From an uncultured Gammaproteobacteria bacterium (GTDB lineage: Bacteria; Patescibacteriota; Microgenomatia; UBA10105; UBA927), in the NCBI GenBank assembly GCA_964609895.1, contig CAZSTG010000003.1:7574-71573 (forward strand): DNA of 64,000 nt, written 5' to 3'. The notes under the pieces are model-generated. The model was not told the origin of the DNA. It searched no databases and saw nothing but the letters and a program-made list of their open reading frames with translations. Both the position numbers and the translations under genes were made by a program. Positions 6,641-55,978 of the stretch are shown here, one piece after another. Every line of letters begins with the position of its first letter. Within the stretch, counting starts at the first letter, position 1.

Positions 6641-6641
6641 A

Positions 6642-9985: not shown

Positions 9986-10009
9986 GCATGCGCAAAGGAA
10001 TCATAGGAT

Positions 10010-24265: not shown

Positions 24266-25582
24266 ATGACGAAGTTAGAGGAAATTATTGCACTCTGTAA
24301 ACGGCGCGGATTCGTGTATCCGACCAGTGATATCTATGGCGGTATCGGCGGATTTTATGATCTGGGACCGCAGGGAGTTGCCTTGACGCGGAATATCAAA
24401 GAGGCATGGTGGAAGGAAATGGTGACGAGCCGTGATGATGTGGTGGGACTTGATTCTGCAATTATTCTCAATCCAAAGACATGGGAAGCGTCAGGACATG
24501 TTGCCGCGTTTACCGATCCTCTGATTGAATGTAAACTCTGTCACAGCAGGCTTCGCGCAGATCAGGAAGATGAGATTGCCGCACACATTGCCTCTCATAA
24601 AACAAAAGGGGAACAAGATGTCATATTTACTGAACCTCGGCAATTTAATCTGCTTTTTAAAACATTTGTAGGTCCGGTAGAGGATTCAAAAAGTGTTGCA
24701 TACCTTCGTGGAGAAACGTGTCAGGGAATCTTCACCAATTTTAATAATATCGTAATGTCAAACCGCGTGAAGATTCCGTTCGGTATTGCGCAGATTGGGA
24801 AGGCATTCCGGAACGAAGTGACGCCGGGAAAATTCCTGTTTCGGGTTCGTGAATTCGAACAAATGGAACTTGAATATTTTGTTGAACCGAAAGATGCTGA
24901 CAGCGCGTTTGCCATGTGGAAAGAAAAACGGATGGCGTGGCACCTTTCCTTGGGTATTTCCAAGGAAAATATCAGATTACGGCAGCATGATCAGACGGAA
25001 CGGGCACATTACGCATCAGATTCTTGGGACATTGAGTATAATTTTCCGGAATGGGGTTTTAAAGAGCTTGAGGGACTTGCAAATCGTACAGATTATGACT
25101 TGAAAATACAGAGTAAATGGAGCGGTAAGGAATTGAAGGTAACGAATCAGGAAACAAAGGAAAGCTATTATCCATATGTTATCGAACCGTCGGTCGGCGT
25201 CACACGACTGATGCTTGCATTGTTATTTGAGGCATATACCAAAGACGGTGAACGAACTGTGTTGAAGTTCAAGCCCAGCCTTGCACCATACATGGCGGCA
25301 GTGTTTCCGCTGTTGCCAAATAAGGCGGAGCTTGTCACAAAAGCACGTGAGGTATACCTGATGCTGAAGGAAATATTTCCAACCACGTGGGATGACCGCG
25401 GTAACATAGGGAAACGATATCTTGCACAGGATGAAATCGGCACGCCGTGGTGTGTCACCATCGACTTCACCACGCTTGAAGATGGCGCCGTAACTATAAG
25501 AAATCGTGATACAACAACACAGGAACGTATTAGTGTACCTACTCTTGTTGACTATATTCATGCTCATAAACAATTGTCATAA
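24266..25582 (+). CDS. glyS: glycine--tRNA ligase, alpha2 (eukaryotic/archaeal-like) type
   Basis: MTKLEEIIALCKRRGFVYPTSDIYGGIGGFYDLGPQG N-terminus is diagnostic of class II dimeric GlyRS. 438 aa. Confidence 0.9.
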   Translation: MTKLEEIIALCKRRGFVYPTSDIYGGIGGFYDLGPQGVALTRNIKEAWWKEMVTSRDDVVGLDSAIILNPKTWEASGHVAAFTDPLIECKLCHSRLRADQEDEIAAHIASHKTKGEQDVIFTEPRQFNLLFKTFVGPVEDSKSVAYLRGETCQGIFTNFNNIVMSNRVKIPFGIAQIGKAFRNEVTPGKFLFRVREFEQMELEYFVEPKDADSAFAMWKEKRMAWHLSLGISKENIRLRQHDQTERAHYASDSWDIEYNFPEWGFKELEGLANRTDYDLKIQSKWSGKELKVTNQETKESYYPYVIEPSVGVTRLMLALLFEAYTKDGERTVLKFKPSLAPYMAAVFPLLPNKAELVTKAREVYLMLKEIFPTTWDDRGNIGKRYLAQDEIGTPWCVTIDFTTLEDGAVTIRNRDTTTQERISVPTLVDYIHAHKQLS

Positions 25583-29638: not shown

Positions 29639-30808
29639 ATGATTTCTTGGCTAAAGAGCCTCTACCATTGGGTTGTTGCAGTAGCTGCACTAGTATACTT
29701 CAGGTTTCCTGCACGCCATCTTACAGTCATAGGCGTGACCGGTACAGACGGGAAAACCACTACCTCGACGCTTATCTATGAGATTCTGAAGGCCGCCGGA
29801 TACAAAACGTCGGTTATTACCACGGTACACGCAGTTATTGCAGGGAAATCCTATGATACCGGTTTTCATGTCACAACACCAAACGCTTTCTATGTGCAAA
29901 AATACCTGCGGGAAGCGGTCGATCACGGTGATACGCATGTTGTTTTGGAGACAACTTCTCATGCGCTTGCACAGTCACGCGTGCTAGGGATTCATTTTGC
30001 AGTTGGAGTACTCACCAATGTGACGCATGAACATCTGGATTGGCACAAAACATACGACCGGTATCTGATGGCAAAAATGAAACTGTTGTTTGCGTCCGAT
30101 ACAGCGGTTATCAATAAAGATGAGGGAGAACTGTATGCGCGTATTTCCCCGCTTCTTAGACGTCATAAACTTGTAACGTACGGACTCAGACGTCAGGCAA
30201 CCATAACGCCTGAAACACATCCGTTTGAAACTGCACTCCTCGGTGATTTTAATCAATATAATTGTCTGGCAGCAATTGCCGCGACAGGTCTGGTTGGTGT
30301 GTCAAAAGATGTGATAAAAAGGACAATCAAAGGATTTACCGGAATTCCCGGAAGAATGGAAATTATTTCGGTAAAACCGTGCCGCGTAATTGTTGATTTT
30401 GCCCATACGCCAAACGCGATTGATAAGGCGCTCAAAACCGCGCGGGATATGACGAAGGGCAGGCTCATTCATGTGTTTGGGAGCGCAGGACTCAGGGATC
30501 GGACGAAGCGTCCGTATATGGGGAAATTTTCCGCCCAGTATGCAGACAGCATTGTGTTGACGGAAGAAGACTTTCGAACAGAAAATGTGGAAACTATCAT
30601 GGATGAAATTGCTTCAGGCATCCCTATATATAAAGATGTGCACCGATTTGCTCGTCGTGAAGACGCGATTAAGTTTGCGTTGTCTGATGTAAAAAAAGAT
30701 GATACCGTCATCATCACAGGCAAAGGGCATGAAAAGAGTCTCTGTCGCGGCAACACGGAATATCCGTGGAGTGATCAGGAAGCAGTGAAAAAACTTTTGA
30801 AAAAGTGA
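29639..30808 (+). CDS. murE: Mur ligase, MurE-like, lacking the N-terminal UDP-binding domain
   Basis: P-loop GVTGTDGKTTT at residue 33. TSHALAQSRV, TNVTHEHLDWH, DFAHTPNAI and C-terminal IITGKGHE match MurE. Only 20 aa precede the P-loop, and the 143-nt upstream gap cannot encode domain 1. Confidence 0.65.
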   Translation: MISWLKSLYHWVVAVAALVYFRFPARHLTVIGVTGTDGKTTTSTLIYEILKAAGYKTSVITTVHAVIAGKSYDTGFHVTTPNAFYVQKYLREAVDHGDTHVVLETTSHALAQSRVLGIHFAVGVLTNVTHEHLDWHKTYDRYLMAKMKLLFASDTAVINKDEGELYARISPLLRRHKLVTYGLRRQATITPETHPFETALLGDFNQYNCLAAIAATGLVGVSKDVIKRTIKGFTGIPGRMEIISVKPCRVIVDFAHTPNAIDKALKTARDMTKGRLIHVFGSAGLRDRTKRPYMGKFSAQYADSIVLTEEDFRTENVETIMDEIASGIPIYKDVHRFARREDAIKFALSDVKKDDTVIITGKGHEKSLCRGNTEYPWSDQEAVKKLLKK

Positions 30809-30818
30809 ACTTCTGTTT

Positions 30819-31559
30819 ATGGTACATAAGACCAATCAGGGACTGTATCAGTCCTCAATAGTGAAAAATATACCGGGAGTCATTCATGGATTCACGTCAA
30901 AAACACACGGCTCCATGTTGATTGCGGAAAATCAAAGAAAGCTGTTTCTTTCGCTCGGCATACCGCCCGAATCGGTGATTTCCGCACGTCAGGTTCACGG
31001 CAACGCCGTTCACGTTGTGCATCCACAGGATGCAGGTGGCAGATTGGAAGATGTTGACGGCATCGTGTATAAAAAAACGGACGTACGGCAACAGCACCCT
31101 TTGCTCACCGTTCATGTCGGTGACTGCGTACCGATGCTGTTTATTGATTCGGTTGCGGGTATCATCGGAGTTGCCCATGCGGGTTGGAGGGGAACAAAAG
31201 ACCATATTGCGCGCACTGTGCTTAGCGAATTCGTCAGGAACGGTTCGGATCCTTCGCATATTCAGGTGGTGTTCGGCCCGTTTATTCATGCATGCTGTTA
31301 CAAGGTTGATGAAGAGCGTGCACTGGTATTTGAACGGGAATTTCCCGGAAGCCGCGGTGTCGTAAACCGCTTGGGTGTATCATGGTTTATAGATCTAGGA
31401 ATTGCGAACATACTGGATTTGAAGCAGGGCGGCGTATTGGAAAAAAATATCGAAAATAATGAACAGTTGTGCACTTATAATAATCCGCTTGAATTTTTTT
31501 CGTTCAGAAGGACGACTGAACCGTTTGGCGAAATACTAGGGTTCATCGGATACATATAA
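30819..31559 (+). CDS. pgeF: peptidoglycan editing factor PgeF / YfiH (DUF152, Cu-oxidase_4 fold)
   Basis: Motifs VHGNAVHVV and HAGWRGT are family-diagnostic. Confidence 0.8.
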   Translation: MVHKTNQGLYQSSIVKNIPGVIHGFTSKTHGSMLIAENQRKLFLSLGIPPESVISARQVHGNAVHVVHPQDAGGRLEDVDGIVYKKTDVRQQHPLLTVHVGDCVPMLFIDSVAGIIGVAHAGWRGTKDHIARTVLSEFVRNGSDPSHIQVVFGPFIHACCYKVDEERALVFEREFPGSRGVVNRLGVSWFIDLGIANILDLKQGGVLEKNIENNEQLCTYNNPLEFFSFRRTTEPFGEILGFIGYI

Positions 31560-33955: not shown

Positions 33956-35293
33956 ATGGATAAATTTGTCGTTACGGGGCCAACTAGACTTCACGGCGAG
34001 GTGACGAGCGCGGGAGCAAAAAATGTCGCGCTGAAGGCAATTGTTGTATCGCTTCTTACCGAAGAAACGGTGATTCTCCACAATATGCCGCATATCAGGG
34101 ATGTGATGCTAATGCTCGATGTGGTCAGAAGCCTCGGTGCGGTTGCGACATTTGAAGGAAATACGGTGACCATTGAAGATGGAAAATCGCGAAGCACAAC
34201 CGTTCCTTTGGAAATTGGGGCTCGGCTTCGTACGTCATCCATGGTTTTAGGACCAATGCTTTCCCGCTATGGAAAAGCCATGATTCCAAACCCAGGGGGC
34301 TGCAGAATCGGCGCGCGGCCGATAGACCGCCATGTTGAAGGATTAAAAAACATGGGTGCAACAATTGACTATAACTCGACGGACGGATTTTTTCATGCGG
34401 AAGCTGAACACCTCCACGGTGCCGACATCACGTTTGAAAAAAACACGCATACGGGAACAGAAACACTGATTCTTGCCGCAGTACTGGCGGACGGAAAAAC
34501 AGTGCTTCATAATGCTGCGGAAGAAGTGGAGATTGATGATCTGATCGCTCTTTTAAATTCGATGGGGGCAGACATCAAGAGAACAGGACATAGGGAAATT
34601 ACCATTAACGGCGTTAAAACACTGCATGGTACCGAATACACAATCATGTCGGATCGTAATGAAGAAGTGACGTTTGCGATAGCGGCAGTTGTTTCCAAAG
34701 GGAATATTGTTGTGCATCATTCAGAACGGAAACATCTCAAAGAATTTTTAGATGTATTTGTAAAAGCCGGTGGAAAATATAAAACAGTTGACGATACAAC
34801 GACTGAATATTATTATGACGGCCCACTGAATGCAGTTGATGTGACGACTGCGCAGCACCCCGGTTTTATGACTGACTGGCAGGCGCCGTGGGCGATACTG
34901 ATGACGCAGGCAGAGGGAACATCGATGATCCATGAAACAGTATTTGAAAATAGGTTTAGTTATGTGGAGGAACTCAAAAAAATGGGTGCGAATATCGAAT
35001 ACTTTGATCCGGTGGTTAGTAATCCACAAGAATTTTATAACTTTAACTGGACGGATAAAAAAGCAGATACGCATCAGGCAATAAAAATTACAGGTCCGAC
35101 GACACTTCATAATGCGATTACTTCTATGAGTGACCTTCGTGCAGGCGCAACCGTCGTCTTGGCTGCAATCATTGCCAACGGAAAAAGTTATATCCATGGG
35201 GTTGAACAGATTGATCGTGGCTATGAACATATTGATACCAGACTGCAATCCCTTGGTGCTTCCATAGAACGCATCGGGGAAGATACAGTTTGA
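33956..35293 (+). CDS. murA: UDP-N-acetylglucosamine 1-carboxyvinyltransferase
   Basis: FVVTGPTRLHGEVTSAGAKNVAL N-terminus, and catalytic cysteine context GGCRIGARPID. Confidence 0.9.
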   Translation: MDKFVVTGPTRLHGEVTSAGAKNVALKAIVVSLLTEETVILHNMPHIRDVMLMLDVVRSLGAVATFEGNTVTIEDGKSRSTTVPLEIGARLRTSSMVLGPMLSRYGKAMIPNPGGCRIGARPIDRHVEGLKNMGATIDYNSTDGFFHAEAEHLHGADITFEKNTHTGTETLILAAVLADGKTVLHNAAEEVEIDDLIALLNSMGADIKRTGHREITINGVKTLHGTEYTIMSDRNEEVTFAIAAVVSKGNIVVHHSERKHLKEFLDVFVKAGGKYKTVDDTTTEYYYDGPLNAVDVTTAQHPGFMTDWQAPWAILMTQAEGTSMIHETVFENRFSYVEELKKMGANIEYFDPVVSNPQEFYNFNWTDKKADTHQAIKITGPTTLHNAITSMSDLRAGATVVLAAIIANGKSYIHGVEQIDRGYEHIDTRLQSLGASIERIGEDTV

Positions 35294-35307
35294 TGAAGGA
35301 GGATTGT

Positions 35308-36615
35308 ATGGCAGATGTAACCGCAGTGCTTTTGGCAGGAGGAGAATCTACACGTTTTTTCCCATATGAGGAAAAAAGCGTCTGTTCTTTTTTGGGAACA
35401 TCCTTTTTAACACGGCATTATGAACAACTGTCCCGACTTGGCATGAGGCATGTTGTTGTGGTGACCAACAGGTCAAATACCGCACTCATCAAATCCGTTG
35501 CAGTCCCAAAAACGATGCAGGTTGTGTATGTAGAACAACAGGAAAAAGGTCAGGTACAAGCAGTCATCGCATTGGAACACGTGTGTAAGGGGCCTGTGCT
35601 TCTTCTGAATGCTTCAGATTATTATGCTGATGCATGTATTCAGCCGTTTTTGAAATCGGCAACCAAAGATATTCTGCTTGGTGCGGTCAGAACGTCTGCG
35701 TATTTTCCCGGCGGGTATCTGAAGATGGACGGAAAAGGATCGGTACAGGCCATTATCGAAAAACCGAAACAGGGTACTGAACCGAGTGATGTTGTCAGAA
35801 TCCTTGTTGATTATATTCCCGATATTTCGCTTTTAGTCGCTGCAGCAAAAGAACATGGAGGTAATCCGTCAAGCGGTTATGAAGAAGCACTCACAACGCT
35901 TATTGCACACGGCAGCACCGCAACGCCGATGATTACGGACAAAGATAATTGGAAGGCGATAAAATATCCATGGCATATATTGGATCTGACGGATCAATAT
36001 TTGTCGGAACTGAAAGGTCAGCAGATAGACCCCAGTGTCGTCATAAAACCACACGTTATTATAGAAGGGAATGTTGTGATTGAATCAGGCGTCAAAATTT
36101 TTGAAGGAACGAAAATTGTAGGGCCTGCGTTTATCGGAAAAAATACGATTATCGGAAACAATAATATTATCAGATCATCCGTGATCGGCCGTGATTGCGT
36201 GACAGGATTTAATACAGACATTACCAGAAGTGCCATAGGCAACAACTGCTGGTTTCATACCAATTATGTCGGAGACAGCGTTATCGGCAATAATGTCAGT
36301 ATGGGTTCAGGAACTGTGCTTGCGAATTTGCGTCTGGATGACGGAATTATCCCAAGCACGGTCAAAGAAGAAAAAATTGATACAGGACGGAATAAACTTG
36401 GTGCAATGATCGGGGACAATGTCCGGATCGGTGTCAATGTAAGTACCATGCCGGGAATCAAAATCGGACGTGATTCTTTTATCGCCGCAGGGATTGTGGT
36501 GACACAAGACATTCCGCAAGGATCATTTGTACGGCCACTCAGTGTCGGATTTGTGATTAAACCAAATACAAAAACCGCGTCAACTTCCAGAGAAGGATTT
36601 CGGAAAGGCTTATGA
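35308..36615 (+). CDS. GlmU-like bifunctional protein (sugar-1-P nucleotidyltransferase N-domain plus left-handed beta-helix acyltransferase C-domain)
   Basis: Start at Met 7, preceded by SD AGGAGG. VLLAGGESTRF nucleotidyltransferase motif. C-terminal hexapeptide repeats (IIEGNVVIESG..., IIGNNNIIRSS..., IGNNVSMGSG...). Confidence 0.55.
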   Translation: MADVTAVLLAGGESTRFFPYEEKSVCSFLGTSFLTRHYEQLSRLGMRHVVVVTNRSNTALIKSVAVPKTMQVVYVEQQEKGQVQAVIALEHVCKGPVLLLNASDYYADACIQPFLKSATKDILLGAVRTSAYFPGGYLKMDGKGSVQAIIEKPKQGTEPSDVVRILVDYIPDISLLVAAAKEHGGNPSSGYEEALTTLIAHGSTATPMITDKDNWKAIKYPWHILDLTDQYLSELKGQQIDPSVVIKPHVIIEGNVVIESGVKIFEGTKIVGPAFIGKNTIIGNNNIIRSSVIGRDCVTGFNTDITRSAIGNNCWFHTNYVGDSVIGNNVSMGSGTVLANLRLDDGIIPSTVKEEKIDTGRNKLGAMIGDNVRIGVNVSTMPGIKIGRDSFIAAGIVVTQDIPQGSFVRPLSVGFVIKPNTKTASTSREGFRKGL

Positions 36616-37343
36616 AACGCCCCACAATTTTATTGCTTTCCGGATGGGTGCGAACAAATGTAATAAAAGAGTATTACAAAAAAACTATTCAGGAATTTGA
36701 AAAAAAGGGGTACACAGTATATGCCCCTGATATGCCCGGATTCGGAGCCGCGAAAAATCCTGACCACCCCCTGACACTGCATGATTATGCCGTATTTGTT
36801 TCTGCATATATAAAAAAACAAGCGATACAGCCAGATATACTGCTCGGTCATTCCTTTGGTGGCCGTGTGATCATCGAGTATCTTTCATTATTTCCTTTTA
36901 ACGGTAAGGCAGTGGTGCTTTCGGGAACACCGGGGTATCCATCGATTAAAAAAAGCAAAATGTTACTGTCACTTCTTATTGCCAAAATTGGCGGAACGAT
37001 TGTCTCCTTGCCACTTATTTCGAAACTGAAAGAAAGAATCCGCGGATGGTATTACTATATTGTAGGCGCACGCGATTTTTATAGGGCAGAAGGAGTTATG
37101 CGTCAAACATTTAAAAATATAGTGCAGACACCGCTAGAACAACAGATGAAAACAATACGTATCCCGACGTTACTCGTGTGGGGAGCGGACGATGTGATCG
37201 TTCCGCTCAGCGTCGCCAAGAAGATGAAGCAGACAATCTCAACCGCGACGCTTATTTCCATACCCGCATGCGGACACGGATGCATTGTTGAGACACCGGA
37301 GCATTTTGTGAAAGAAACAATGCGTTTTATACAACATCTATGA
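36612..37343 (+). CDS. alpha/beta hydrolase fold protein
   Basis: Nucleophile elbow LLGHSFGG. Length 243 aa. Confidence 0.65.
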   Translation: MKRPTILLLSGWVRTNVIKEYYKKTIQEFEKKGYTVYAPDMPGFGAAKNPDHPLTLHDYAVFVSAYIKKQAIQPDILLGHSFGGRVIIEYLSLFPFNGKAVVLSGTPGYPSIKKSKMLLSLLIAKIGGTIVSLPLISKLKERIRGWYYYIVGARDFYRAEGVMRQTFKNIVQTPLEQQMKTIRIPTLLVWGADDVIVPLSVAKKMKQTISTATLISIPACGHGCIVETPEHFVKETMRFIQHL

Positions 37344-38812
37344 CCGAAATGTTCAGTATCATCATAGCCCTGATTTGGCTGATTCGCATCGGTATAAACA
37401 TTGTCTCATATATCGCCCTGTGGTATGTCAAAGAATACAGACCAGACAGGATGATCATTCATCTAAAAAAAACAAGACAGGGGAAATGGATACTTTTTCC
37501 CAAATGGAAACTTCCGCCATTTTCAACGAAAACTTTCACATTGACGGGTGTACTTTTTCTGACTGAGCTTGCGTTATTTATTTTTCTTCCGTATCAGCTA
37601 TTTATAAAACTGCTTATCATGGATTTTGCGCTTTTTCCATTGTCGTTTCTGTTTGCCATGCTTGTCCGCATTCCCACCAAGTTGTTTCACATATATACCA
37701 TCGCAAAGGCACGCAAAGTATTAGCTGCACACACATGGAAATCAGTTATAGGCATTACCGGCAGCTATGGAAAAACTTCAACAAAAGATTTTGTGACAAC
37801 TATTTTAAGCGGCGCGTATAGCGTATTGAAAACAGAAGCAAGTAAAAATTCCAGTATCGGAATTTCTGAAACGGTGCTGTCAACATTAGTTGACACACAT
37901 CAGATGTTTGTTGTTGAAATGGGAGCGTATAACGTAGGCGAAATAAAAGAAATGACAGAGCTTGTGCGGCCGAATATCGGCATTATTACGGCAATTAATG
38001 CACAGCATCAGGATTTATTTGGTTCGATGGAAACGACGATGAAAGCAAAATATGAATTATTGCAGGGGCTTACCCGTAACAAAATTGCAATTGTGAATGA
38101 AGATATTGAAGAAACACACGCCATGGGACTATGGGCAAAACAGGAAGGAGTGCATGTTTGGTTTGTAACCAGAGACAAAAAATTGTATACAGACGCCACG
38201 TTTTGGATCGACGCCGTGGCCTCAGATACAAGTTCCGTGACGTTCATGCTGCATTATAAAAAAGAGAAGGAAAAAATTACGGTTTCAATTAGCGGAGAGC
38301 ACTTTGTCATGAATATTGCTCTTGCCGTGGCGGCAGCTGTTGCAAGCGGACTTTCCTTCCGCGAAGCATGCACCTATGCGCATCGTATTCAAAGATCAGG
38401 TAATGTGATGCGCCTGCATATTGGAATAAAAGGGGAAACACTGATTAATGACACATTCAACAACAACCCGGAAGCAGCGATTGCCGGTCTTGAGTATCTT
38501 GCAAAATTTTCCAAGAAAAAGATTCTTGTTTTTCAACCGATGATAGAGCTCGGAACATTTACTGACTCATCACATGAGCGCGTGGGTAAAGTTGCAGGAA
38601 GCGTATGTGATGAAATTATTCTTACAAACGATAATTTTTCAAAGCCTTTTATACAGGGCGTACATGAAACGAATCCGAATATCAGTGTGCATATTTTACC
38701 GGCCGAAAAAGCTGCGCAACATATCAAACAATCAATTTCAGCAGGTGACGCGGTGCTGTTTAAAGGAAAAGAAGCTGAATTTGTATGGAAACACATGGTT
38801 GGAAAGAAGTAA
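37340..38812 (+). CDS. murF: Mur ligase MurF-like with an N-terminal multi-TM region replacing the canonical N-terminal domain
   Basis: About 120 N-terminal residues form 3-4 hydrophobic helices. Then GITGSYGKTSTKDF P-loop and INDTFNNNPEAAIAGL (the MurF DDSYNANP-type motif). Confidence 0.65.
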   Translation: MTEMFSIIIALIWLIRIGINIVSYIALWYVKEYRPDRMIIHLKKTRQGKWILFPKWKLPPFSTKTFTLTGVLFLTELALFIFLPYQLFIKLLIMDFALFPLSFLFAMLVRIPTKLFHIYTIAKARKVLAAHTWKSVIGITGSYGKTSTKDFVTTILSGAYSVLKTEASKNSSIGISETVLSTLVDTHQMFVVEMGAYNVGEIKEMTELVRPNIGIITAINAQHQDLFGSMETTMKAKYELLQGLTRNKIAIVNEDIEETHAMGLWAKQEGVHVWFVTRDKKLYTDATFWIDAVASDTSSVTFMLHYKKEKEKITVSISGEHFVMNIALAVAAAVASGLSFREACTYAHRIQRSGNVMRLHIGIKGETLINDTFNNNPEAAIAGLEYLAKFSKKKILVFQPMIELGTFTDSSHERVGKVAGSVCDEIILTNDNFSKPFIQGVHETNPNISVHILPAEKAAQHIKQSISAGDAVLFKGKEAEFVWKHMVGKK

Positions 38813-38819
38813 ACGCTGT

Positions 38820-40049
38820 ATGGTATATCCAATTGGACTATCGCCAAATATTGAACGTGATGATGTTACAAGAGCATGGACAGTGTTAGTTTCTCCGTGG
38901 CGATGGTATCAGAATGACGGTTTGAAGAGTGTGTCACTTTGGTTTTCACAAAAATTCGGCACTCCGTATGTTTATTTTTTTTGTACGGGAAGAAGCGCAT
39001 TAACGACGCTTTTGCGTGCACTGCACATCGGTACAGGTGATGAAGTGCTGTTACAGGCTTTTACTTGCATGGTTGTGCCGAACGCCATCCGTTTCGTAGG
39101 TGGAGTGCCAGTGTATGTTGACGTTGACAGCTCGGGAAATTGTGACGTGAAGGATATTGAACGAAAACTTTCGCCGCGGACAAAGGCACTGATTGTCCAA
39201 CATACGTTCGGGACACCGGCAGACATGGATGCGATTCTTCGATTCGCAAAGAAAAAGAACATTACTGTTATTGAGGACTGCGCGCACGCACTCGGCGCGA
39301 CATACAAAGGGGTGCAACTCGGGTCGCTGGGTGATGCGGCGATCTTTAGTTTCGGCAGAGACAAGTGTATTTCCAGTGTATTTGGCGGTGCCGTTGTGGT
39401 GAAGGATGCGTCCGTTGCCGCGGAAATTTCCAGACTGGAAAAAAAATATGCATATCCGTCACGACGTTGGATAAGCCAGCAATTGTTGCATCCGATACTG
39501 ACATGGCTCGCACTGCCGCTGTATGCATCCGGCATCGGCAAAGGTTTGCTAGTGCTGTTTCAGAAACTGCATCTGCTTTCGTTTCCTGTGGAAGCGTGTG
39601 AGAAAAAGGGAGAGCAGCCAAAAAATTATCTCATGCGGTATCCGAACGCGCTGGCGGTATTGTTGATACATCAGCTTACAAAACTTGATCGGTACAGTGC
39701 TATGCGCAGACAAGCAGCCCATTTGTACAGACAGGCATTTGGTGGGAACAGGGACATCACTATGCTTTCAGAAAGAGATGGAAGCGGGTATCTCCGTTTT
39801 GGCATTCTGGTCAACAATCCGTCTGCAGTGCTCGGATATGCGAAACGTCACCATGTCATTCTCGGAAACTGGTACCATGCAGTCGTTGATCCAGAGGGTA
39901 GCGACATGTCGCAAGCGATGTACCATACAGGTTCATGTGGTCACGCGGAAGTGATGGCAAAACACATTGTCAATCTTCCGACACGAAAAACGCAGGCGGA
40001 AGTGCAGGAAATATCCAAACTTGTCCTTGACTCGCTTCAAAACACATGA
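38820..40049 (+). CDS. DegT/DnrJ/EryC1/StrS family PLP-dependent aminotransferase
   Basis: Start at Met 83 of ORF 38574 (first ATG after the murF stop). GTGDEVLLQAFTCMVVPNAI, VIEDCAHALGATYKG and SFGRDKCISSVFGGAVV (PLP Lys) motifs. Confidence 0.7.
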   Translation: MVYPIGLSPNIERDDVTRAWTVLVSPWRWYQNDGLKSVSLWFSQKFGTPYVYFFCTGRSALTTLLRALHIGTGDEVLLQAFTCMVVPNAIRFVGGVPVYVDVDSSGNCDVKDIERKLSPRTKALIVQHTFGTPADMDAILRFAKKKNITVIEDCAHALGATYKGVQLGSLGDAAIFSFGRDKCISSVFGGAVVVKDASVAAEISRLEKKYAYPSRRWISQQLLHPILTWLALPLYASGIGKGLLVLFQKLHLLSFPVEACEKKGEQPKNYLMRYPNALAVLLIHQLTKLDRYSAMRRQAAHLYRQAFGGNRDITMLSERDGSGYLRFGILVNNPSAVLGYAKRHHVILGNWYHAVVDPEGSDMSQAMYHTGSCGHAEVMAKHIVNLPTRKTQAEVQEISKLVLDSLQNT

Positions 40050-40696
40050 CGACACAGACAGACATCATCGTTGACAGCTATATACTCGGGCAGCTACAGG
40101 CAAACTGTTATGTGGTGTCCGACAGGAAAACGGATGACATGCTTATCATCGATCCGGCGGATATGGGTACATTTGTCGCTGAAGAGATTGAGCGGAAAAA
40201 AGGAAAACCCGTCGCCATTTTGCTGACGCATGGCCATTTTGACCACGCCATGGGGGCTGCGGAATTGCAGGCGATATACGGCATTCCCTGTTTTATGGAT
40301 ATGCGTGATCAGGCGATTATCAGCCGTATGCAGAAAACCGCTGCGCATTATTTGGGAAGAAATATTTTGGAATTCCCGCCAACATGTACGCCGCTTGATT
40401 TTTCCCGCACCGTGTACGGTTCTTTGTATGTAGAAAGCATACATACGCCGGGTCATACTCCGGGCAGCGTTTCTTTTTATCTGAAGGAGAAAGGCGTATT
40501 GTTTACGGGCGACACGATGTTTGCGGGCGGGCTGGTCGGGAGTACCAATCATACATATAGTAGGCCGCTTGATCTGAAGGATTCACTCGCACGGCTCTCC
40601 ACATATCCTGATGCGACGATACTCTATCCGGGGCATGGGGAGATGACTATTTTGGATGATGAAAAAGCAATATACGCTGCTAAGAAATCAGTATGA
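40046..40696 (+). CDS. MBL-fold metallo-hydrolase (glyoxalase II-like)
   Basis: THGHFDHAMGA metal-binding motif and downstream HTPGHTPG. 216 aa. Confidence 0.75.
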   Translation: MTTQTDIIVDSYILGQLQANCYVVSDRKTDDMLIIDPADMGTFVAEEIERKKGKPVAILLTHGHFDHAMGAAELQAIYGIPCFMDMRDQAIISRMQKTAAHYLGRNILEFPPTCTPLDFSRTVYGSLYVESIHTPGHTPGSVSFYLKEKGVLFTGDTMFAGGLVGSTNHTYSRPLDLKDSLARLSTYPDATILYPGHGEMTILDDEKAIYAAKKSV

Positions 40697-41703
40697 TACA
40701 GATACACACAGAAGCGGACAAAAAAAAGTGGGAGGTTTTTATAGACCGGTATGCGACGGATGCGCTGTTTCAACGGTGGGATTGGGGAGAGGTAAATAAA
40801 CGGCAACATATTGAGTGTCTTCGTTTTGTGTATGAAGAGCAGGGTAAGATAACGGCCATTGCGCAGGCGGTTGTTGTGCGTGCCCGACGCGGCAATTTTC
40901 TTCATGTCCGTCACGGGCCGATTCTTTCTGTGTGGAACAAAAAAACATTCCGCTTTGTGATCCGTCATCTGAAAACTGTTGCCAAGGAAAAACAGTGTGT
41001 CGCAGTCCGCATCAGTCCAAGGATCGCCAAGACGGATGCCACGCTTGCCATGTATACGGAAGAGCACGGTATTGCGTCCGCGATTCATGCAATGGACGCG
41101 GAACACGCGTGGGTGCTTGATATTACCCAAGACGAAGACGCGATACTTGCGGGTATGCGGAAGACAACCAGATATGAAATACGAAAAGGAGAAAAGTCGG
41201 GGGTAACAGTCATGAGTTCGACGGAAATGGAATCACTTGCATCGTTTATGGCGCTCTACCGTGAGACTGCGAAGCGTCAGCATTTCGTACCGCACACGGG
41301 TATCGAAGAGGAATTTGCGGTGTACGCAAAGATGGGCAATGCGGTATGTATTACGGGATATGTCGGGGACGTGCCGCATGCGAGTGCGGTCATCATTTTT
41401 GCGGGTTCCGAGGGGATTTATCATCACGGCGCGTCCGTCACTTCGACAGTGCCTGTATCCTATGTTGTACAGTGGCATGCGATTTTAGAGGCGAAAAAAC
41501 GGGGTATGAAGCAATACAATTTTTGGGGCGTGGCACCTGAAAACGAACCGAAACATCCTTGGTTTGGACTTTCTTCGTTCAAAAAAGGTTTCGGCGGGAG
41601 TGAAGTGCAGACGATACACGCATATGATTTCCCTGTATCATGGCGGTATATCGGCTTATACATTGTGGAATGGCTCAGAAAGCAGCAAAAAGGCTACTCG
41701 TGA
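40693..41703 (+). CDS. FemAB-family aminoacyl-tRNA-dependent peptidoglycan transferase (FemX-like)
   Basis: 336 aa. C-terminal YNFWGV...GLSSFKKGFGGSEV matches the FemABX signature. N-terminal GNAT-like half. Confidence 0.65.
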   Translation: MIQIHTEADKKKWEVFIDRYATDALFQRWDWGEVNKRQHIECLRFVYEEQGKITAIAQAVVVRARRGNFLHVRHGPILSVWNKKTFRFVIRHLKTVAKEKQCVAVRISPRIAKTDATLAMYTEEHGIASAIHAMDAEHAWVLDITQDEDAILAGMRKTTRYEIRKGEKSGVTVMSSTEMESLASFMALYRETAKRQHFVPHTGIEEEFAVYAKMGNAVCITGYVGDVPHASAVIIFAGSEGIYHHGASVTSTVPVSYVVQWHAILEAKKRGMKQYNFWGVAPENEPKHPWFGLSSFKKGFGGSEVQTIHAYDFPVSWRYIGLYIVEWLRKQQKGYS

Positions 41704-42087: not shown

Positions 42088-43131
42088 ATGGTTTTTTTAC
42101 TCGGCGCATTATTATTTTCTTGGATAGTCAGCAGCAGCTTGTATATTCCGTTTATCAAACTGCTCTATAACTTTCGGATGCAACGCATGAAGCAGGTGAC
42201 GCTTGATGCATTTAATAAACGGACGCCGATATTCGACAAGTTCCATCAGATAAAAGCAGGAACTCCTGTTGGCGGTGGCGTGCTCATTATCCTTGTCACC
42301 ACCATTCTTTTTCCGCTTGCGCTCGTGCTGATGAAATATTTTTGGGTGCCGATCACTTCTGTATATCCGATGGCTGCGGAAATAAAGATATTATTGTTTA
42401 CCTTTATCTCTTTTGGATTATTAGGGCTTCTTGACGACATGAAAAAAACGTTTGTTCTGAAGTCTGATTTTTTCGGACTAAGGCTGCGCCATAAACTGAT
42501 TCTTGAAATTATCATTGCAGCGGTCATCAGCTTTTGGCTGGTTACGGATCTGCACATCAATATTTTTTATCTCCCGCTGTTTGGTGTTATTCACATGGGG
42601 TGGTGGTTTATTCCGTTTTCCATGTTTACCATAATCGCGTTTGCGAATGCATTTAATATTACGGACGGACTGGACGGATTGGCATCCGGTGTGCTGATGA
42701 TCGCACTTTTTGCTTTTTGGATTGTGAGCGCGTCCATTCTCGATACGCCGCTTTCCGTATTTCTGGCACTCTGGATTGGTAGTTTGTTGGCGTTTTTATA
42801 TTTCAACGTCTATCCGGCGCGTATTTTTTTGGGTGACGTCGGCGCACTGTCATTTGGTGCGACGTTTGCTGTGGTGGGACTGATTCTCGGTAAAGCTCCC
42901 GCACTGATCATCATCGGCTTTGTGTTTGTCATCGAAGTCGCCTCGTCGCTCATTCAGCTCCTGTCCAAAAAATTTTTCCACAAAAAAGCATTTCCCGCCG
43001 CGCCGTTTCATCTGTTTTTGCAGTATGCGGGATGGGCTGAACCAAAGATTGTCATGCGTTTCTGGATTCTTTCGATTGTCTTTGCTGTGTTCGGACTCTT
43101 CTTTGCTTTTTTGACAAAGAATCCGATATAA
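42088..43131 (+). CDS. mraY: phospho-N-acetylmuramoyl-pentapeptide transferase
   Basis: Start at Met 13, 3 nt after the dgkA stop. NAFNITDGLDGLASG and GDVGALSFG motifs. Confidence 0.9.
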   Translation: MVFLLGALLFSWIVSSSLYIPFIKLLYNFRMQRMKQVTLDAFNKRTPIFDKFHQIKAGTPVGGGVLIILVTTILFPLALVLMKYFWVPITSVYPMAAEIKILLFTFISFGLLGLLDDMKKTFVLKSDFFGLRLRHKLILEIIIAAVISFWLVTDLHINIFYLPLFGVIHMGWWFIPFSMFTIIAFANAFNITDGLDGLASGVLMIALFAFWIVSASILDTPLSVFLALWIGSLLAFLYFNVYPARIFLGDVGALSFGATFAVVGLILGKAPALIIIGFVFVIEVASSLIQLLSKKFFHKKAFPAAPFHLFLQYAGWAEPKIVMRFWILSIVFAVFGLFFAFLTKNPI

Positions 43132-50917: not shown

Positions 50918-51940
50918 ATGTTATTCGATGCAGAAGACTTCAAGCGATTTATAATGATTAAAGAAGGTCTTGATACTGGCTCAATACGTCATTGTATGAG
51001 TAGGTTTAGGCTGTTTAATCAATGGTTATATGCTTCGGGTTTAGAACTCAATAAAGATTGTGTAGAAAGGTATTTTTCAGAATTAAAAGAAAAAGGATTA
51101 AAGAATAATTCGCTTAACACATATAGCTTCATGTTTCGTCATTTGGTTTCTTATTGCAAAGATAGAGGTTTACCCAGCGATTTTTTTGATGGCTTTAAGT
51201 CATTCAAGAAAACTAAGCCTGATATTATTATTTTTACTCAAGAAGAGATTGAGAAAATTCTTACTACCGATCTTACATACGGTTTGTTTCATGGAAAATC
51301 TTCTGACTTTTTAAATTTTCGATATAAGACAATGACCATGTTTCTTGCATATACTGGTTGCCGATATTCAGAGGTAGCAGAATTAACAGTGAAGCACGTT
51401 GATATTAGTGCAGGAAGAGCAACATTTGTGAATACCAAAACAAATGAAAATCGGACAGCGTATTTTACCGAACCATTGAAGAGTAATATAAAGAAATTAA
51501 TTGAGAATAGACAACCGAACGATAGAATATTTTGTAATTCCTCAAACAAACAAATTCAGGTTACAGAATACAGTGGTGATTTAAAAAGAAGAGCAATAGA
51601 AGCAGGAGTCACAAAGAGAACGTTCCCCCATAACTTCAGACATAGTTATATAACCCACATGTTGGAGGCAGGTGTACCTATTACAGAGGTCGCAACGCTC
51701 GTCGGACATAAAGACATACAAACAACCTATTCAACGTATATGCATTTAGCTGATAAAACACTTGAACGAGCTGCGATGCGTCATCCGATGGTACGGAAAA
51801 ACGTTGATCCGAAAGAAATTTTGAAGATGATAAAAGAAATGATAGAAGGATATCATTTGGAAAATGACAATCGATTTACATATAAAATTGAAGATAAAGG
51901 AGAGGAATTAAATATAAGCATTTCAAGATCATATGAATAA
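50918..51940 (+). CDS. int: tyrosine-type site-specific recombinase/integrase
   Basis: C-terminal catalytic region with R...HNFRHSYITHMLEAGVPITEVATLVGHKDIQTTYSTYMH (R-H-R-Y family signature). Confidence 0.85.
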   Translation: MLFDAEDFKRFIMIKEGLDTGSIRHCMSRFRLFNQWLYASGLELNKDCVERYFSELKEKGLKNNSLNTYSFMFRHLVSYCKDRGLPSDFFDGFKSFKKTKPDIIIFTQEEIEKILTTDLTYGLFHGKSSDFLNFRYKTMTMFLAYTGCRYSEVAELTVKHVDISAGRATFVNTKTNENRTAYFTEPLKSNIKKLIENRQPNDRIFCNSSNKQIQVTEYSGDLKRRAIEAGVTKRTFPHNFRHSYITHMLEAGVPITEVATLVGHKDIQTTYSTYMHLADKTLERAAMRHPMVRKNVDPKEILKMIKEMIEGYHLENDNRFTYKIEDKGEELNISISRSYE

Positions 51941-52493
51941 TACCTATTTAGCTAAACCAATTACATGGGATACGATACGTACTCGGTTTGATCCGCAACA
52001 TGTTCAATTCGAAGCTGAAAAAGAATTGAAAACAATCACACCAGAAAAAAGGGAATTCGAAGGCACAACAAATATATATAAAGCGTTCACTCTTAAAGAG
52101 TTCGAGAATGGAGTTTTATTGAGTGAAACATTGAAAGAAGAATATAAGACTTTTGCTATTGACCTTAGTCGAAATATTCAGAAAGAATACAATTGTTCAA
52201 CTGTTAGTCAAAAAGCTACAGCGGAGCTAATAGCTTGTTCGTATAGTCGGATATTACAAACGACAATGATGATTACTCGATATCTCAATATTGGCTCGGT
52301 GTCGGACAGTGGAATTAAATATCTAGCTGTGATGTCTAAAGAGCTTGATCGAGCACAGAGGCACTATACAACGGCATTACAAACCTTGTTTATGCTCAAA
52401 CAACCACCATTGAATATTACTGTAAAGGCAGAAACAGCGAATATAGCTAATAACCAGTTAATACAACAAAATAACCACGTTAAGCCCATATGA
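51933..52493 (+). CDS. hypothetical protein (element cargo)
   Basis: 186-aa ORF overlapping the integrase stop by 8 nt. No motif recognised. Confidence 0.4.
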   Translation: MNNTYLAKPITWDTIRTRFDPQHVQFEAEKELKTITPEKREFEGTTNIYKAFTLKEFENGVLLSETLKEEYKTFAIDLSRNIQKEYNCSTVSQKATAELIACSYSRILQTTMMITRYLNIGSVSDSGIKYLAVMSKELDRAQRHYTTALQTLFMLKQPPLNITVKAETANIANNQLIQQNNHVKPI

Positions 52494-52768
52494 TTACTCA
52501 TAATTCTTTGGTGGCGGAAAACTGTCTAAAAATACGAATAGATGATTATGTGCGTCAGGTAAGAAATAGTCTTAAAAAAGTTATTATAGAAGCTCAGATA
52601 AATGTAAATGGCGACAACATTAAACTTTGTGAATCAAATACAAGATTTGGCGGATCAAGATTATGGTTTGAATGTCCGTTATGTAAAAGGAGACGAGAGA
52701 TTCTATATATCAATTCAACAGGCAAAAAAATAGTTTGTCGAAAATGTATCAGATTAAATTATAAGTAA
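52490..52768 (+). CDS. hypothetical protein with C-terminal CxxC...CxxC zinc ribbon
   Basis: ATGA overlap with the upstream ORF. CPLCKRRREILYINSTGKKIVCRKC. Confidence 0.4.
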   Translation: MITHNSLVAENCLKIRIDDYVRQVRNSLKKVIIEAQINVNGDNIKLCESNTRFGGSRLWFECPLCKRRREILYINSTGKKIVCRKCIRLNYK

Positions 52769-52846
52769 ATTGAATTGTGAATGGTTTGCAGTAATAATCT
52801 ATCGGGATATAATAGCGGTAGTGGGACATATATTTAAGATATTGGC

Positions 52847-54163
52847 ATGAAACAAAAACTTATTACCTTCATGTTTTTTTCTTGGTTGTCTTCTATTTTA
52901 TTCTTTATTGCATTAATTGTTTTAATGGTTATTGCAAATATAAGTATACAAAACCATATTGTTGCATGGATTTTATATATGGATATTGGATTTGGTGTTT
53001 TATCTTGTTTAGGATTTTTTACAAGTGTTTTATTAATACATGATCCTGCTTACCAAAAAAATTCAAAGAAAGTTAAACCAATTAAATTTATAACCACGGT
53101 AATAGCATTTATAATATTGTTTATTCTTGTCCCCCGTTTAATATCTGGTCGCTATTTACAAGCAGCCTCAGTATATGCACAAAATGGAGATAGTCAAAAA
53201 GCGATAAATGCTTATAAAAATGCTAAAATTGCGTTACGTTGGACTATTTCGGATACTTCTGAAGTAAAGAAAATCGATAAATTAATTGCAGAGACCCCAA
53301 CAGATTGTGTAATCAACGAAGTACAGGTTAAGGCTACAAAGGAAAAATGCGATGAGTGGGTAAACTATCTTAAAACATCATTAACTCCAACTCCGAAACA
53401 AACCACCTTTACTTATCCATGCACAGGAGGAAATTCAAAACAAACGATTTACGTAAAAGATAATAGTGACTGTCAACAAAATTATACAGATTGTGAACTT
53501 AATGATGGTACATGGAAAGTAATGGCAAAAAACGATTGTAATATTGCTCAAGGAAGAACTGGTTCAGGAGGAAAGATTGACTGTGTCGGACCAGATGGAA
53601 AACATCTCCAGTTAACACAGCAAGAGTGTGACAATTTTAATGCTGCTTGGGGAAAGCCTAGAAGTGGTGGTAATAATAATGCGACAACAAACGTGCGAAC
53701 ATCTGCGACAGCAAACATTAGATCAGCACCCGCAAATAATGGCATGATTCAGTGTTCTTATTCAAACGGAGAATATCAATATAACTATGGTTTTATCACA
53801 ATTGAAGAATGCATGGTAAAAAATAATCAGTATTGGGATTCATTAAAAGTACCATCAACCATAGGTTCAAATACTCAACCAACTACTACGCCATCAAACA
53901 ATCAAACTACAGTTAATACGTCAGCATGTTATAGCCAGTATAATGCAGATGTTCAAAGGGCAAATAGTTATGGAGGTAATGTTGGTGCAAGTATGAAAGA
54001 GATGGCACAAAATAATTTATCATACTGTTTATCCTCAGGAAATGTAACTGCAGTAGGAAATGTTACAAAAGAGCCACCAAGAGATGCGAATGGAAAACTT
54101 TGTTCTGACTATACATCTGAAGAGATGGTAATCGCATTATCAATGGGTTGTCCTTATCCCTGA
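52847..54163 (+). CDS. membrane-anchored Cys-rich low-complexity protein (element cargo)
   Basis: Three N-terminal TM helices, one TPR-like stretch, then T/N/S/Q-rich extracytoplasmic region with at least 12 Cys. Confidence 0.45.
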   Translation: MKQKLITFMFFSWLSSILFFIALIVLMVIANISIQNHIVAWILYMDIGFGVLSCLGFFTSVLLIHDPAYQKNSKKVKPIKFITTVIAFIILFILVPRLISGRYLQAASVYAQNGDSQKAINAYKNAKIALRWTISDTSEVKKIDKLIAETPTDCVINEVQVKATKEKCDEWVNYLKTSLTPTPKQTTFTYPCTGGNSKQTIYVKDNSDCQQNYTDCELNDGTWKVMAKNDCNIAQGRTGSGGKIDCVGPDGKHLQLTQQECDNFNAAWGKPRSGGNNNATTNVRTSATANIRSAPANNGMIQCSYSNGEYQYNYGFITIEECMVKNNQYWDSLKVPSTIGSNTQPTTTPSNNQTTVNTSACYSQYNADVQRANSYGGNVGASMKEMAQNNLSYCLSSGNVTAVGNVTKEPPRDANGKLCSDYTSEEMVIALSMGCPYP

Positions 54164-54371
54164 AACACATTAAGTCTTTTTTATCAGAAATCCTCTTTTC
54201 GACAAAGTTTTAACTTAAGTTTGTTTTAAAATATAGCCCATAATAATATTGCTATAGTTTGATCTAGATGAGTACTAGATTTGCTATCCCCTTATAGGGC
54301 GATAACGTACCTACTTCTTTTTTAGACTTCATATATAGGATAGAAAACCTATTTTTGATTGATTAACTGAT

Positions 54372-54542
54372 ATGAATTCCCAAGAACAAAAAACAATTGT
54401 TGTCAAAACCAAACCAAAGGTTCTCCCTGTGGAATGTCCAGTGTGTCACAACTTTGGAACAGTTGGATATGCACAAAAAGTCTGTCATGGCTGTGGAGGT
54501 AAGGGGTACATTCTTGTACCGGCTGAGGAGGCGCTACCATGA
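54372..54542 (+). CDS. small zinc-ribbon protein with DnaJ-type CxxCxGxG motif (56 aa; shorter than the ORF-track cutoff)
   Basis: Translated here: MNSQEQKTIVVKTKPKVLPVECPVCHNFGTVGYAQKVCHGCGGKGYILVPAEEALP. ATGA overlap with the next ORF. Confidence 0.4.
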   Translation: MNSQEQKTIVVKTKPKVLPVECPVCHNFGTVGYAQKVCHGCGGKGYILVPAEEALP

Positions 54543-55060: not shown

Positions 55061-55371
55061 ATACCAATGATAGCAGTAAACATTGCTATAGAATCATTCT
55101 AAGAGTGTGGAAGAACGGTGAAAACAGTAAAACGTACCGTACAACAAAATCCAAGCGTTTTTATTCAGTTGTTGAGGCGGAAGATTTTCAAAAAGCCTAT
55201 CTTAAAGTTTCTTACGGTAAAGACAAAACTAACTTCGGTAAGAATGAGGAATTTTATAACGATGGCGACTACATGACCAAGAAAGAGTTAATTGAGGCAT
55301 TCAAAGCCTTCACAGAGCAAAACCGAAGTACAGATAAGGGTTCTACGAGGAACAACTATCGAAACGGCTGA
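55057..55371 (+). CDS. hypothetical protein
   Basis: 104-aa ORF, ATGA overlap with upstream. Lys-rich. Confidence 0.35.
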   Translation: MNTNDSSKHCYRIILRVWKNGENSKTYRTTKSKRFYSVVEAEDFQKAYLKVSYGKDKTNFGKNEEFYNDGDYMTKKELIEAFKAFTEQNRSTDKGSTRNNYRNG

Positions 55372-55976: not shown

Positions 55977-55978
55977 AT

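Follow-up and report, generated by a model that had tools for sequence, protein, structure and literature searches.

Peptidoglycan precursor synthesis is among the best-mapped bacterial pathways and is a major antibiotic target. In the MurT/GatD complex, which amidates lipid II, a Mur-ligase homologue without an N-terminal uridine diphosphate (UDP)-binding domain works with a nitrogen-supplying partner and acts on the membrane-bound precursor. In DhpH, an enzyme of dehydrophos biosynthesis, a pyridoxal 5'-phosphate (PLP)-dependent domain is fused to a Fem-like tRNA-dependent transferase, which acylates the amine that the PLP domain makes. To our knowledge, an enzyme of the PLP aminotransferase fold has been placed in no described Mur or Fem pathway. 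Here we analyze a gene block in which such an enzyme, a divergent member of the DegT/DnrJ/EryC1 fold, is encoded directly after a MurF with a predicted membrane anchor (TM-MurF) and upstream of a FemX-like protein. We refer to these two proteins as the block DegT and the block Fem. The block lies in 64,000 nucleotides of contig CAZSTG010000003.1 (assembly GCA_964609895.1, positions 7,574 to 71,573 of the forward strand), which carry a Patescibacteriota lineage in GTDB; this whole stretch is called the window, and positions are numbered from its first letter.

A first-pass annotation, made from the letters of the window alone, had proposed a module for the modification of peptidoglycan precursors at this place. 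The general idea was borne out: the genes make up a conserved unit that is transcribed together and devoted to precursor synthesis. We conclude that the small alpha/beta hydrolase abH, TM-MurF, the block DegT, and the block Fem cooperate in peptidoglycan precursor synthesis, and that the region is one copy of a widespread, peptidoglycan-dedicated block of the Patescibacteria, a group that makes up a very large share of bacterial diversity.

Conservation of the block and natural fusions of its genes

The distribution of the block DegT was determined by scanning one genome per GTDB species for two peptide motifs of its clade. At least 599 matching stretches were listed, and 586 of those listed encode a relative, so that the protein is present in at least 586 species genomes. 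Named relatives of the DegT protein belonged to Microgenomates, Gottesmanbacteria, and other Patescibacteria. Where record names were sensible, the relatives were Gottesman-, Woese-, Levy-, Blackburn-, and Beckwithbacteria, and more distantly Portnoy- and Spechtbacteria, Uhrbacteria, and Minisyncoccales; the block was conserved over both Microgenomates- and Parcubacteria-labelled genomes. A good number of titles in the genome collection clearly cannot be trusted. The murF-DegT-Fem block was also found under records titled Woesearchaeota, Pacearchaeota, Chloroflexota, and Gammaproteobacteria (L057, L077, L080, and many others), most of which are probably mislabelled or mis-binned Patescibacteria. 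Its occurrence in DPANN archaea would be notable if real.

Gene order was counted in the 80 loci most similar to the query, whose open reading frames (ORFs) were annotated by BLASTP with the window proteins. Fem lay just downstream of DegT in 66 of the 69 loci with enough sequence; upstream of DegT, abH was found in 63 of 68 loci and murF in 58 of 68, and mraY followed downstream in 53 of 66. The arrangement recurred in all 80 of the related loci examined and is far beyond chance. In the distant loci L059 to L080 and L082, the order abH-murF-DegT-Fem was intact while other dcw (division and cell wall) genes were dispersed. A gene for a metallo-beta-lactamase (MBL)-fold hydrolase, which the first-pass annotation had counted as a member of the module, was present in only 30 of the 69 loci. 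For this reason we regard it as an optional passenger outside the conserved core, which consists of abH (or a transglutaminase-fold protein in its place), TM-MurF, the block DegT, and the block Fem.

Other genes occupied the same spot in some relatives. Twelve of them (L006, L009, L016, L021, and others) carried an extra gene of about 325 codons between DegT and MBL or Fem (at about 9200 to 10170 of the locus), and its product appears, by sequence inspection only, to have an N-terminal CvpA-like membrane part and a C-terminal CAP/SCP-like domain. Nine others carried at that position a membrane protein of about 115 residues with four helices.

Natural fusions linked the same partners. A search with the concatenated block retrieved four protein clusters of 938–963 residues (P0241–P0244), each consisting of TM-MurF followed by the block DegT. 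An exhaustive profile search of 1.84 billion representatives was also made, and fusions were read among the best 150 matches. These included further MurF::DegT fusions (P0356 and P0380, along with P0243 of the four clusters), DegT::Fem fusions (P0265, P0278, P0303, and P0334), and a fusion of a transglutaminase core to DegT (P0370). Artefacts of recoding or gene calling were rejected, since the three fusion ORFs checked (L082, L084, and L085, on contigs with GC contents of 0.31, 0.48, and 0.54) were uninterrupted under translation table 11 and had no in-frame TGA. In a neighbor-joining tree of 153 block DegT domains, based on distance only, the fusions were scattered and their nearest neighbors were mostly unfused. 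This scatter speaks against a single ancestral fusion and indicates several independent fusion events.

Locus L084 was informative about the core. In its stretch 6075–9271, the DegT::Fem fusion is preceded by a transglutaminase-core protein whose core, of the Cys-His-Asp type, is intact, and neither abH nor MurF is encoded nearby. Thus, two different nucleophile-hydrolase folds fill the same slot upstream of DegT. Because L084 keeps the fusion in the absence of both neighbors, DegT and Fem are the tightest pair of the block; the hydrolase or transferase of nucleophile type that is encoded upstream of them can have either fold, and MurF may or may not accompany it.

The proteins of the block

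The ORFs were found where the first-pass annotation had placed them, and all four of its family calls (alpha/beta hydrolase, DegT, MBL, and Fem) held, with Pfam scores far above threshold. For the block DegT, the match to PF01041 was split into two stretches around an insertion, and the profile matched 55 family members in the PDB at E ≤ 1e−10. The AlphaFold2 model had a mean predicted local distance difference test (pLDDT) score of 91.5 and gave Foldseek TM-scores of 0.73–0.77 to QdtB, ArnB, WbpE, and perosamine synthase, at 20–25% identity. Two residues were invariant in 153 of 153 diverse block DegT domains: K182, the lysine expected to form the PLP Schiff base, and D153, the aspartate expected to contact the pyridine nitrogen. 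Given the fold match and these invariant residues, the sensible default is an aminotransferase-type PLP enzyme.

Other positions departed from the canonical family. In place of the canonical motif SGT the block DegT has SGR (R58), and in place of SF[HYF]xxK it has SFGRDK (177–182); R58 was present in 152, R180 in 138, and D181 in 142 of the 153 domains. After the lysine strand, at about 210–270, comes a conserved insertion of about 55 residues, which is largely helical and contains the near-invariant residues W217, H224, Y235, K241, and E261. The insertion was rejected as a membrane anchor, since none of its segments passed the Kyte-Doolittle threshold, in contrast to the N terminus of the MurF. 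The protein did not give the full-length canonical match with the motifs SGT..AL and SF[HYF]xxK. No sugar-aminotransferase equivalog cut-off was reached (LegC family 133 bits against 420, PseC 130 against 423.5, ArnB 121 against 631), and the NCBIfam models PseC, ArnB, WecE, LegC, and DesI covered only residues of about 10–207, at no more than one third of their cut-offs.

The family comprises more than 150 clusters at 50% identity and, as judged from these alignments, forms a clade of its own within the DegT/DnrJ/EryC1/StrS family. The possibility that the DegT groups with enzymes of O-antigen type, which would have spoken against the proposed module, was not borne out, since the clade is separate and the sugar-pathway gene set in the window belongs to another DegT (see below). 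The new arginines and the insertion would be the pattern expected for a new, possibly carboxylate-bearing, substrate.

The block Fem protein was modeled with a pLDDT of 93 as two GNAT-like domains without a coiled-coil insert. The top Foldseek matches were 6snr (Staphylococcus aureus FemX), 1xf8, 1ne9, and 1lrz, with E-values of 1e−20 to 1e−22 and TM-scores of 0.73–0.82. The best structural relatives were FemX of S. aureus, FemX of Weissella viridescens (FemX_Wv), and FemA, followed by Sbb17/Sba18 and then by the aminoacyl-phosphatidylglycerol synthase domains of MprF. Residues F296-K297 were invariant in the alignment and correspond to the essential F304-K305 of FemX_Wv and to the FKK of S. 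aureus FemX and FemA. The concern that this protein is a generic GNAT was thus set aside by its two-domain Fem fold and the conserved F-K motif. In a profile hidden Markov model alignment at about 18% identity, where the register is uncertain, D108 and R211 of FemX_Wv aligned with Ser108 and Thr202, and a lysine (K36) lay one position away from K36 of FemX_Wv. With its F-K pair conserved, the block Fem retains the catalytic residues expected of an aminoacyl transferase that uses tRNA, and its acceptor site may differ from those of characterized Fem enzymes.

Aminoacyl-tRNA synthetase genes were seen beside the block in several lineages. Seryl-tRNA synthetase (SerRS) genes adjoined it in L082, in L084, and in 5 of the 80 loci; in Parcubacteria-type loci SerRS was often accompanied by a class IIb enzyme of the Lys/Asp/Asn type. 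Synthetase genes just upstream of the block lay at 2632–5420 in L082, 4806–6068 in L084, and 821–5198 in L052. Such neighbors could hint at the amino acid used by Fem, or could be inherited synteny.

The MurF of the block is not canonical. Its match to TIGR01143 was below the cut-off of 288.6 bits and began only at model position 64; where the UDP-binding domain would form the N terminus, there are instead about three predicted transmembrane helices (residues of about 4–109; 37340–37750), a segment that matched no Pfam family. The MurF N terminus of the fusion proteins has four to five such helices (for example, at 7001–7500 in L082). MurF was nevertheless by far the best-scoring type of Mur ligase for this protein, whereas the MurT model gave only 19.5 bits, and the operon holds no other candidate for MurF. 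We conclude that this MurF is, as predicted from its hydropathy, anchored in the membrane; we are aware of no earlier account of a MurF with such an anchor.

MurE showed a related change. The 389-residue protein aligned with TIGR01085 only from model position 71 and lacks its N-terminal UDP-binding domain, for which there is no room because ftsI ends 144 nt upstream. Its relatives were equally short, and the DNPR-type motif reads T[AE]ED.R, with the arginine kept. In MurE, the arginine of this motif binds a distal carboxylate of the residue at position 3 of the stem peptide. Both late Mur ligases, MurE and TM-MurF, thus lack the nucleotide-binding domain.

The abH protein has a triad of the Ser-Asp-His type, and among solved structures it is closest to two small esterases, Ta0194 and MGS-MChE2; it reached no equivalog cut-off, and sequence comparison gave only generic esterase or hydrolase matches. 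The MBL protein has the HxHxDH metal motif and is closest in the PDB to 7ev5, TTHA1623 (2zwr), and YcbL (2xf4); with TIGR03413 (GloB) it scored 79.8 bits and did not reach the cut-off of 200.8.

The operon and its surroundings in the window

The block is part of a single-strand dcw cluster that spans 27.8–50.7 kb of the window (Table 1). Its order is ftsI, a short murE, pgeF, murC, murB, murA, an archaeal-type glmU-like gene, abH, murF, DegT, MBL, FemAB, a dgkA-like gene, mraY, murI, murD, ftsW, murG, ftsQ, ftsA, and ftsZ. With the glmS gene that 14 relatives add (see below), the cluster encodes nearly the whole route from fructose-6-phosphate to lipid II, without ddl or alr. The glutamate racemase gene murI thus belongs to the same operon as DegT. 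The peptidoglycan editing factor gene pgeF scored slightly below its cut-off.

Table 1. Genes of the block and other features of the window discussed in the text
Feature	Position	Strand	Evidence or remark
GlmU-like, archaeal-type bifunctional sugar-1-phosphate nucleotidylyltransferase/acetyltransferase	35290–36615	+	TIGR03992 Arch_glmU 226 bits; NTP_transferase and Hexapep
abH, small cytoplasmic alpha/beta hydrolase	36612–37343	+	Abhydrolase_1 77.7 bits; GHSFGG nucleophile elbow
TM-MurF	37340–38812	+	Mur_ligase_M 126 bits; Mur_ligase_C 50 bits; TIGR01143 224 bits
Block DegT, divergent DegT/DnrJ/EryC1-fold PLP enzyme	38820–40049	+	PF01041 183.8 bits (cut-off 19.8)
MBL-fold hydrolase, short, glyoxalase-II/YcbL-like	40046–40696	+	Lactamase_B 84.9 bits; THGHFDH
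Block Fem, FemX-like aminoacyl-tRNA-dependent transferase (predicted)	40693–41703	+	PF02388 115.4 bits (cut-off 24)
DgkA-like small membrane kinase (diacylglycerol/undecaprenol kinase family), 121 residues	41720–42085	+	DAGK_prokar 105.8 bits
mraY, downstream edge of the block	42088–43131	+	Glycos_transf_4 115.5 bits; TIGR00445 169.6 bits
murE, short	29639–30808	+	TIGR01085, from model position 71
pgeF	30819–31559		133.5 bits
Glycyl-tRNA synthetase (GlyRS) gene, upstream of the dcw cluster	24266–25582		
SDR dehydratase/epimerase genes	2668–3615; 4545–5528		beside the canonical DegT
Canonical DegT	5537–6640	−	PF01041 386 bits, full-length; SFYPGK motif
FdtA-hexapeptide acetyltransferase fusion	6645–7634	−	beside the canonical DegT
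Phage-integrase-family gene, immediately after ftsZ	50918–51937		

The genes of the block are tightly packed. The translational coupling of DegT to murF proposed by the first-pass annotation agreed with the sequence: the murF stop codon TAA ends at 38812 and the DegT ATG begins at 38820, leaving a spacer of 7 nt. Start and stop codons overlapped as ATGA at four junctions (glmU-like/abH, abH/murF, DegT/MBL, and MBL/Fem). A scan of 29–48.9 kb for promoters and terminators gave site counts equal to those of shuffled sequence, and therefore nothing contradicts a single transcription unit. Scans of the window for tRNA genes and Rfam families gave no matches.

The four genes had been described as lying between murF and mraY. 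This is true of DegT, MBL, and Fem, whereas abH lies upstream of murF; in most of the related loci it is in turn preceded by the GlmU-like gene. A dgkA-like gene between Fem and mraY had been overlooked. A homologue of it occupies this place in 37 related loci, and one is also present in L001. The ATG at 42088 comes after the dgkA stop codon and is probably the start of mraY. In Gram-positive bacteria the DgkA family includes undecaprenol kinase, and the gene would fit a role in recycling of the lipid carrier.

In 14 of the 80 loci, the operon that encodes DegT also carried glmS (for example, at 3770–5557 in L047). The idea that the block DegT replaces GlmS by aminating fructose-6-phosphate was ruled out on this ground.

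A second, canonical DegT is encoded near the beginning of the window, and the two paralogues are 29% identical over 210 residues. It lies beside an FdtA/acetyltransferase fusion and SDR genes, and together these make up a classical 3-amino-sugar set. These keto-sugar-type genes are 30 kb from the block DegT. Past this set, up to 21.3 kb, are genes for glycosyltransferases, a sugar-1-phosphate nucleotidyltransferase, and a priming transferase of the Bac_transf family, and the region from 2.7 to 21.3 kb is probably a cell-surface glycan locus. At the other end of the dcw cluster, beyond the integrase gene and up to about 56000, the ORFs had no family match and the GC content was 0.33–0.35, against 0.44 for the window; the integrase gene and the low-GC stretch (50918–56000) are likely to be an integrated mobile element.

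Possible roles of the block and comparison with known systems

The reading that we prefer, tentatively and at somewhat less than an even chance, is that the block DegT and the block Fem are a coupled pair beside MurF that would furnish the stem peptide with a non-canonical aminoacyl branch. The pair would act close to the membrane, in the final cytoplasmic stage that leads from MurF to MraY, and the two enzymes would modify the same nitrogen of the precursor one after the other. In the order that we favor, DegT would first generate an amino group on the precursor or alter one already there; for example, an oxo-bearing side chain at stem position 3 might be transaminated to give a diamino-acid center. 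R58 and R180 could hold a carboxylate while the lid-like insertion of about 55 residues holds the bulky precursor. Fem would then acylate the new amine with an amino acid from aminoacyl-tRNA. In a less favored order, Fem would add an L-amino acid first, and DegT would then epimerize or transaminate its free alpha-amine. The abH protein, or the transglutaminase-fold protein in its place, might have an accessory part in deprotection or proof-reading.

Chemistry on the stem peptide or a branch is preferred to chemistry on a sugar because MurF and Fem are the fusion partners of DegT. A model with consecutive DegT and Fem steps fits the MurF-DegT-Fem order of both genes and fusions, the lack of a keto-sugar gene in the block, and the altered motifs of DegT. 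Retention of the MurE arginine, which binds a distal carboxylate at position 3, fits it as well, and DhpH, with its PLP domain fused to a Fem-like transferase, offers a precedent. In broader terms, we consider it possible, while still short of probable, that DegT, coupled to MurF and Fem, transaminates or epimerizes a stem-peptide side chain or branch residue on a nucleotide- or lipid-linked precursor, or feeds a tRNA-made dipeptide to MurF; any of these would be an unprecedented step. What we say of the substrate, of the chemistry, and of which step comes first is thus proposed to account for the families, catalytic residues, gene order, and fusions found above.

Several points weigh against this proposal. 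No source of an oxo-bearing precursor was identified, and genomes of the candidate phyla radiation (CPR) generally encode little amino-acid biosynthesis. The structures that match the block DegT best are all nucleotide-sugar aminotransferases. In 6 of the 80 loci (L003, L004, L013, L043, L045, and L051), one of which is the complete Gottesmanbacteria chromosome OY970230.1, abH is followed directly by DegT with no murF between them. The 80 loci are also the closest relatives, and more distant lineages are under-sampled among them. Finally, enzymes that are not consecutive in a pathway are also fused at times, as in the MurF-alanine racemase (NF008897); a fusion therefore proves cooperation and not consecutive steps on one atom.

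That same MurF-alanine racemase is a parallel for the first alternative, in that it too has a PLP enzyme fused to the C terminus of MurF. Here DegT would replace alanine racemase or D-amino-acid transaminase and supply the D-Ala, or a different D-amino acid, needed for the D-Ala-D-Ala added by MurF, and Fem would be an ordinary transferase for a cross-bridge on lysine or diaminopimelate. R58 and R180 could bind the carboxylate of an amino acid, MurI, encoded in the operon, could provide D-Glu as the amino donor, and neither alr nor ddl was found inside any of the 80 loci, a count that applies to the loci and not to whole genomes. However, this alternative leaves the DegT::Fem fusions and the MurF-less pair of L084 unexplained, the size and conservation of the insertion suggest that it accommodates a larger substrate or a protein partner, and we know of no DegT-fold enzyme that makes D-amino acids or racemizes them. 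We consider it unlikely.

Amination of a sugar, as the first-pass annotation had suggested, is in our estimate somewhat less likely still. Here DegT would aminate a keto derivative of UDP-N-acetylglucosamine (UDP-GlcNAc), of UDP-N-acetylmuramic acid (UDP-MurNAc) with or without its peptide, or of a lipid-linked sugar, and Fem would transfer an amino acid to the resulting amino sugar or to the stem peptide. The close relatives in structure and sequence (QdtB, perosamine synthase, ArnB, and WbpE) are all nucleotide-sugar aminotransferases, Fem-fold enzymes that acylate amino sugars exist (Sbb17/Sba18, on streptothrisamine), and the operon holds genes of UDP-GlcNAc synthesis (the GlmU-like gene, and glmS in the 14 loci noted above). 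The supporting enzymes are nevertheless missing: no 4,6-dehydratase, 3-dehydrogenase, or ketoisomerase that would make the keto-sugar was conserved in the block or within ±8 kb of it in the 80 loci, and the block itself had no conserved dehydratase, oxidoreductase, or isomerase of any kind. The sugar-enzyme motifs are also lost, SGT having become SGR and SFHxxK having become SFGRDK, and the sugar models match only the N-terminal 200 residues or so, far below their cut-offs. A canonical DegT pathway is encoded separately in the same window. Moreover, the glycan and the lactyl-peptide require C4 of both sugars and C3 of MurNAc. With MurF and Fem as the partners to which DegT is fused, the reading as an aminated sugar is not favored.

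In a tRNA-dependent route to a dipeptide, a 2-oxo acid would be converted by DegT into an amino acid, onto which Fem would load a second one from aminoacyl-tRNA; MurF would join the resulting dipeptide to UDP-MurNAc-tripeptide, so that Ddl is bypassed or supplemented, and the hydrolase would proof-read. Each enzyme would be used once, in its canonical chemistry, each product would serve as the next substrate, and the MurF::DegT and DegT::Fem fusions would both be accounted for. The synthetase genes beside the block in several lineages (SerRS as above, and GlyRS in the window) would fit such a route, but this adjacency may be synteny inherited within lineages. Another objection is stereochemical: tRNA delivers L-amino acids or glycine, which clashes with the D-center that DD-transpeptidases need at position 4. 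In a survey of 4,062 CPR genomes, matches to glycopeptide-resistance genes, including Ddl-related van ligases (vanA, vanC, and others), were the most abundant category (PMC8651080); this suggests that ligases of the Ddl type are common in the CPR and fits the route poorly. We judge this route improbable.

Least probable of all is that DegT, abH, and MBL are unrelated to peptidoglycan, serving instead the synthesis of a glycan or teichoic-type polymer or detoxification, and have come into the operon through the compactness of CPR genomes: MBL does behave in this way, as do the CvpA-CAP gene (12 loci) and the small membrane protein gene (9 loci) inserted at its spot, so that hitch-hiking holds for MBL, but for DegT, abH, and Fem it is close to refuted by the order kept around DegT in at least 586 species, by a block that outlives dispersal of the operon, and by repeated independent fusions to MurF and Fem.

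If the block DegT does act on a precursor, as in the reading that we prefer, it would give the CPR a new wall chemotype and the DegT family a new type of reaction, and would be a second PLP-plus-tRNA-dependent amide formation outside secondary metabolism. It could also explain two features of the CPR, the MurE without a UDP-binding domain and the membrane-anchored MurF. With its three soluble domains, the block offers concrete, expressible targets for reconstitution.

Each part of the block belongs to a known superfamily. The combination of a DegT-fold PLP enzyme, a TM-MurF, and a FemX-like protein in a dcw operon is not described in the searchable literature, and we found no description of a DegT-Fem-MurF block in the searchable full texts on peptidoglycan of the Patescibacteria or CPR. 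With FemX_Wv and with FemX, FemA, and FemB of S. aureus, the block Fem shares the Pfam family, the fold of two GNAT domains, and the F-K motif, and it is about the size of FemX_Wv (336 residues, no coiled coil); that its gene is a neighbor of murF and mraY likewise fits the comparison. It differs in scoring only 43 bits with the FemX_Wv equivalog model (cut-off 500), and in being obligatorily paired, sometimes fused, with a PLP enzyme; such a pairing is not known to us for any characterized Fem protein. Sbb17/Sba18, the next-best structural matches after the Fem proteins, show that a Fem-like fold can acylate an amine outside peptidoglycan; they are 13% identical to the block Fem and belong to an antibiotic pathway with no dcw link.

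The nucleotide-sugar aminotransferases (QdtB, GDP-perosamine synthase, ArnB, WbpE, and PseC) share with the block DegT the fold (TM-score of about 0.75), the PLP lysine, and the aspartate, whereas the block DegT is only 20–25% identical to them and is set apart by the insertion, by SGR and SFGRDK, and by its genomic partners MurF and Fem. Like MurT, TM-MurF has no N-terminal domain, and it is in addition predicted to be membrane-anchored; unlike MurT, it scores as a MurF (224 bits against 19.5), and its partner is a PLP enzyme rather than a glutaminase. The bifunctional MurF/alanine racemase (NF008897, PRK11930) also carries a PLP enzyme at the C terminus of MurF, but its PLP domain is of fold-type III and supplies D-Ala, whereas the block DegT is of fold-type I and is elsewhere fused to Fem as well. 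DhpH acts on a phosphonate in secondary metabolism and has no link to a Mur ligase or a dcw cluster; in the order of its domains, an N-terminal PLP enzyme followed by a C-terminal Fem-like transferase, it is like the DegT::Fem fusions described here.

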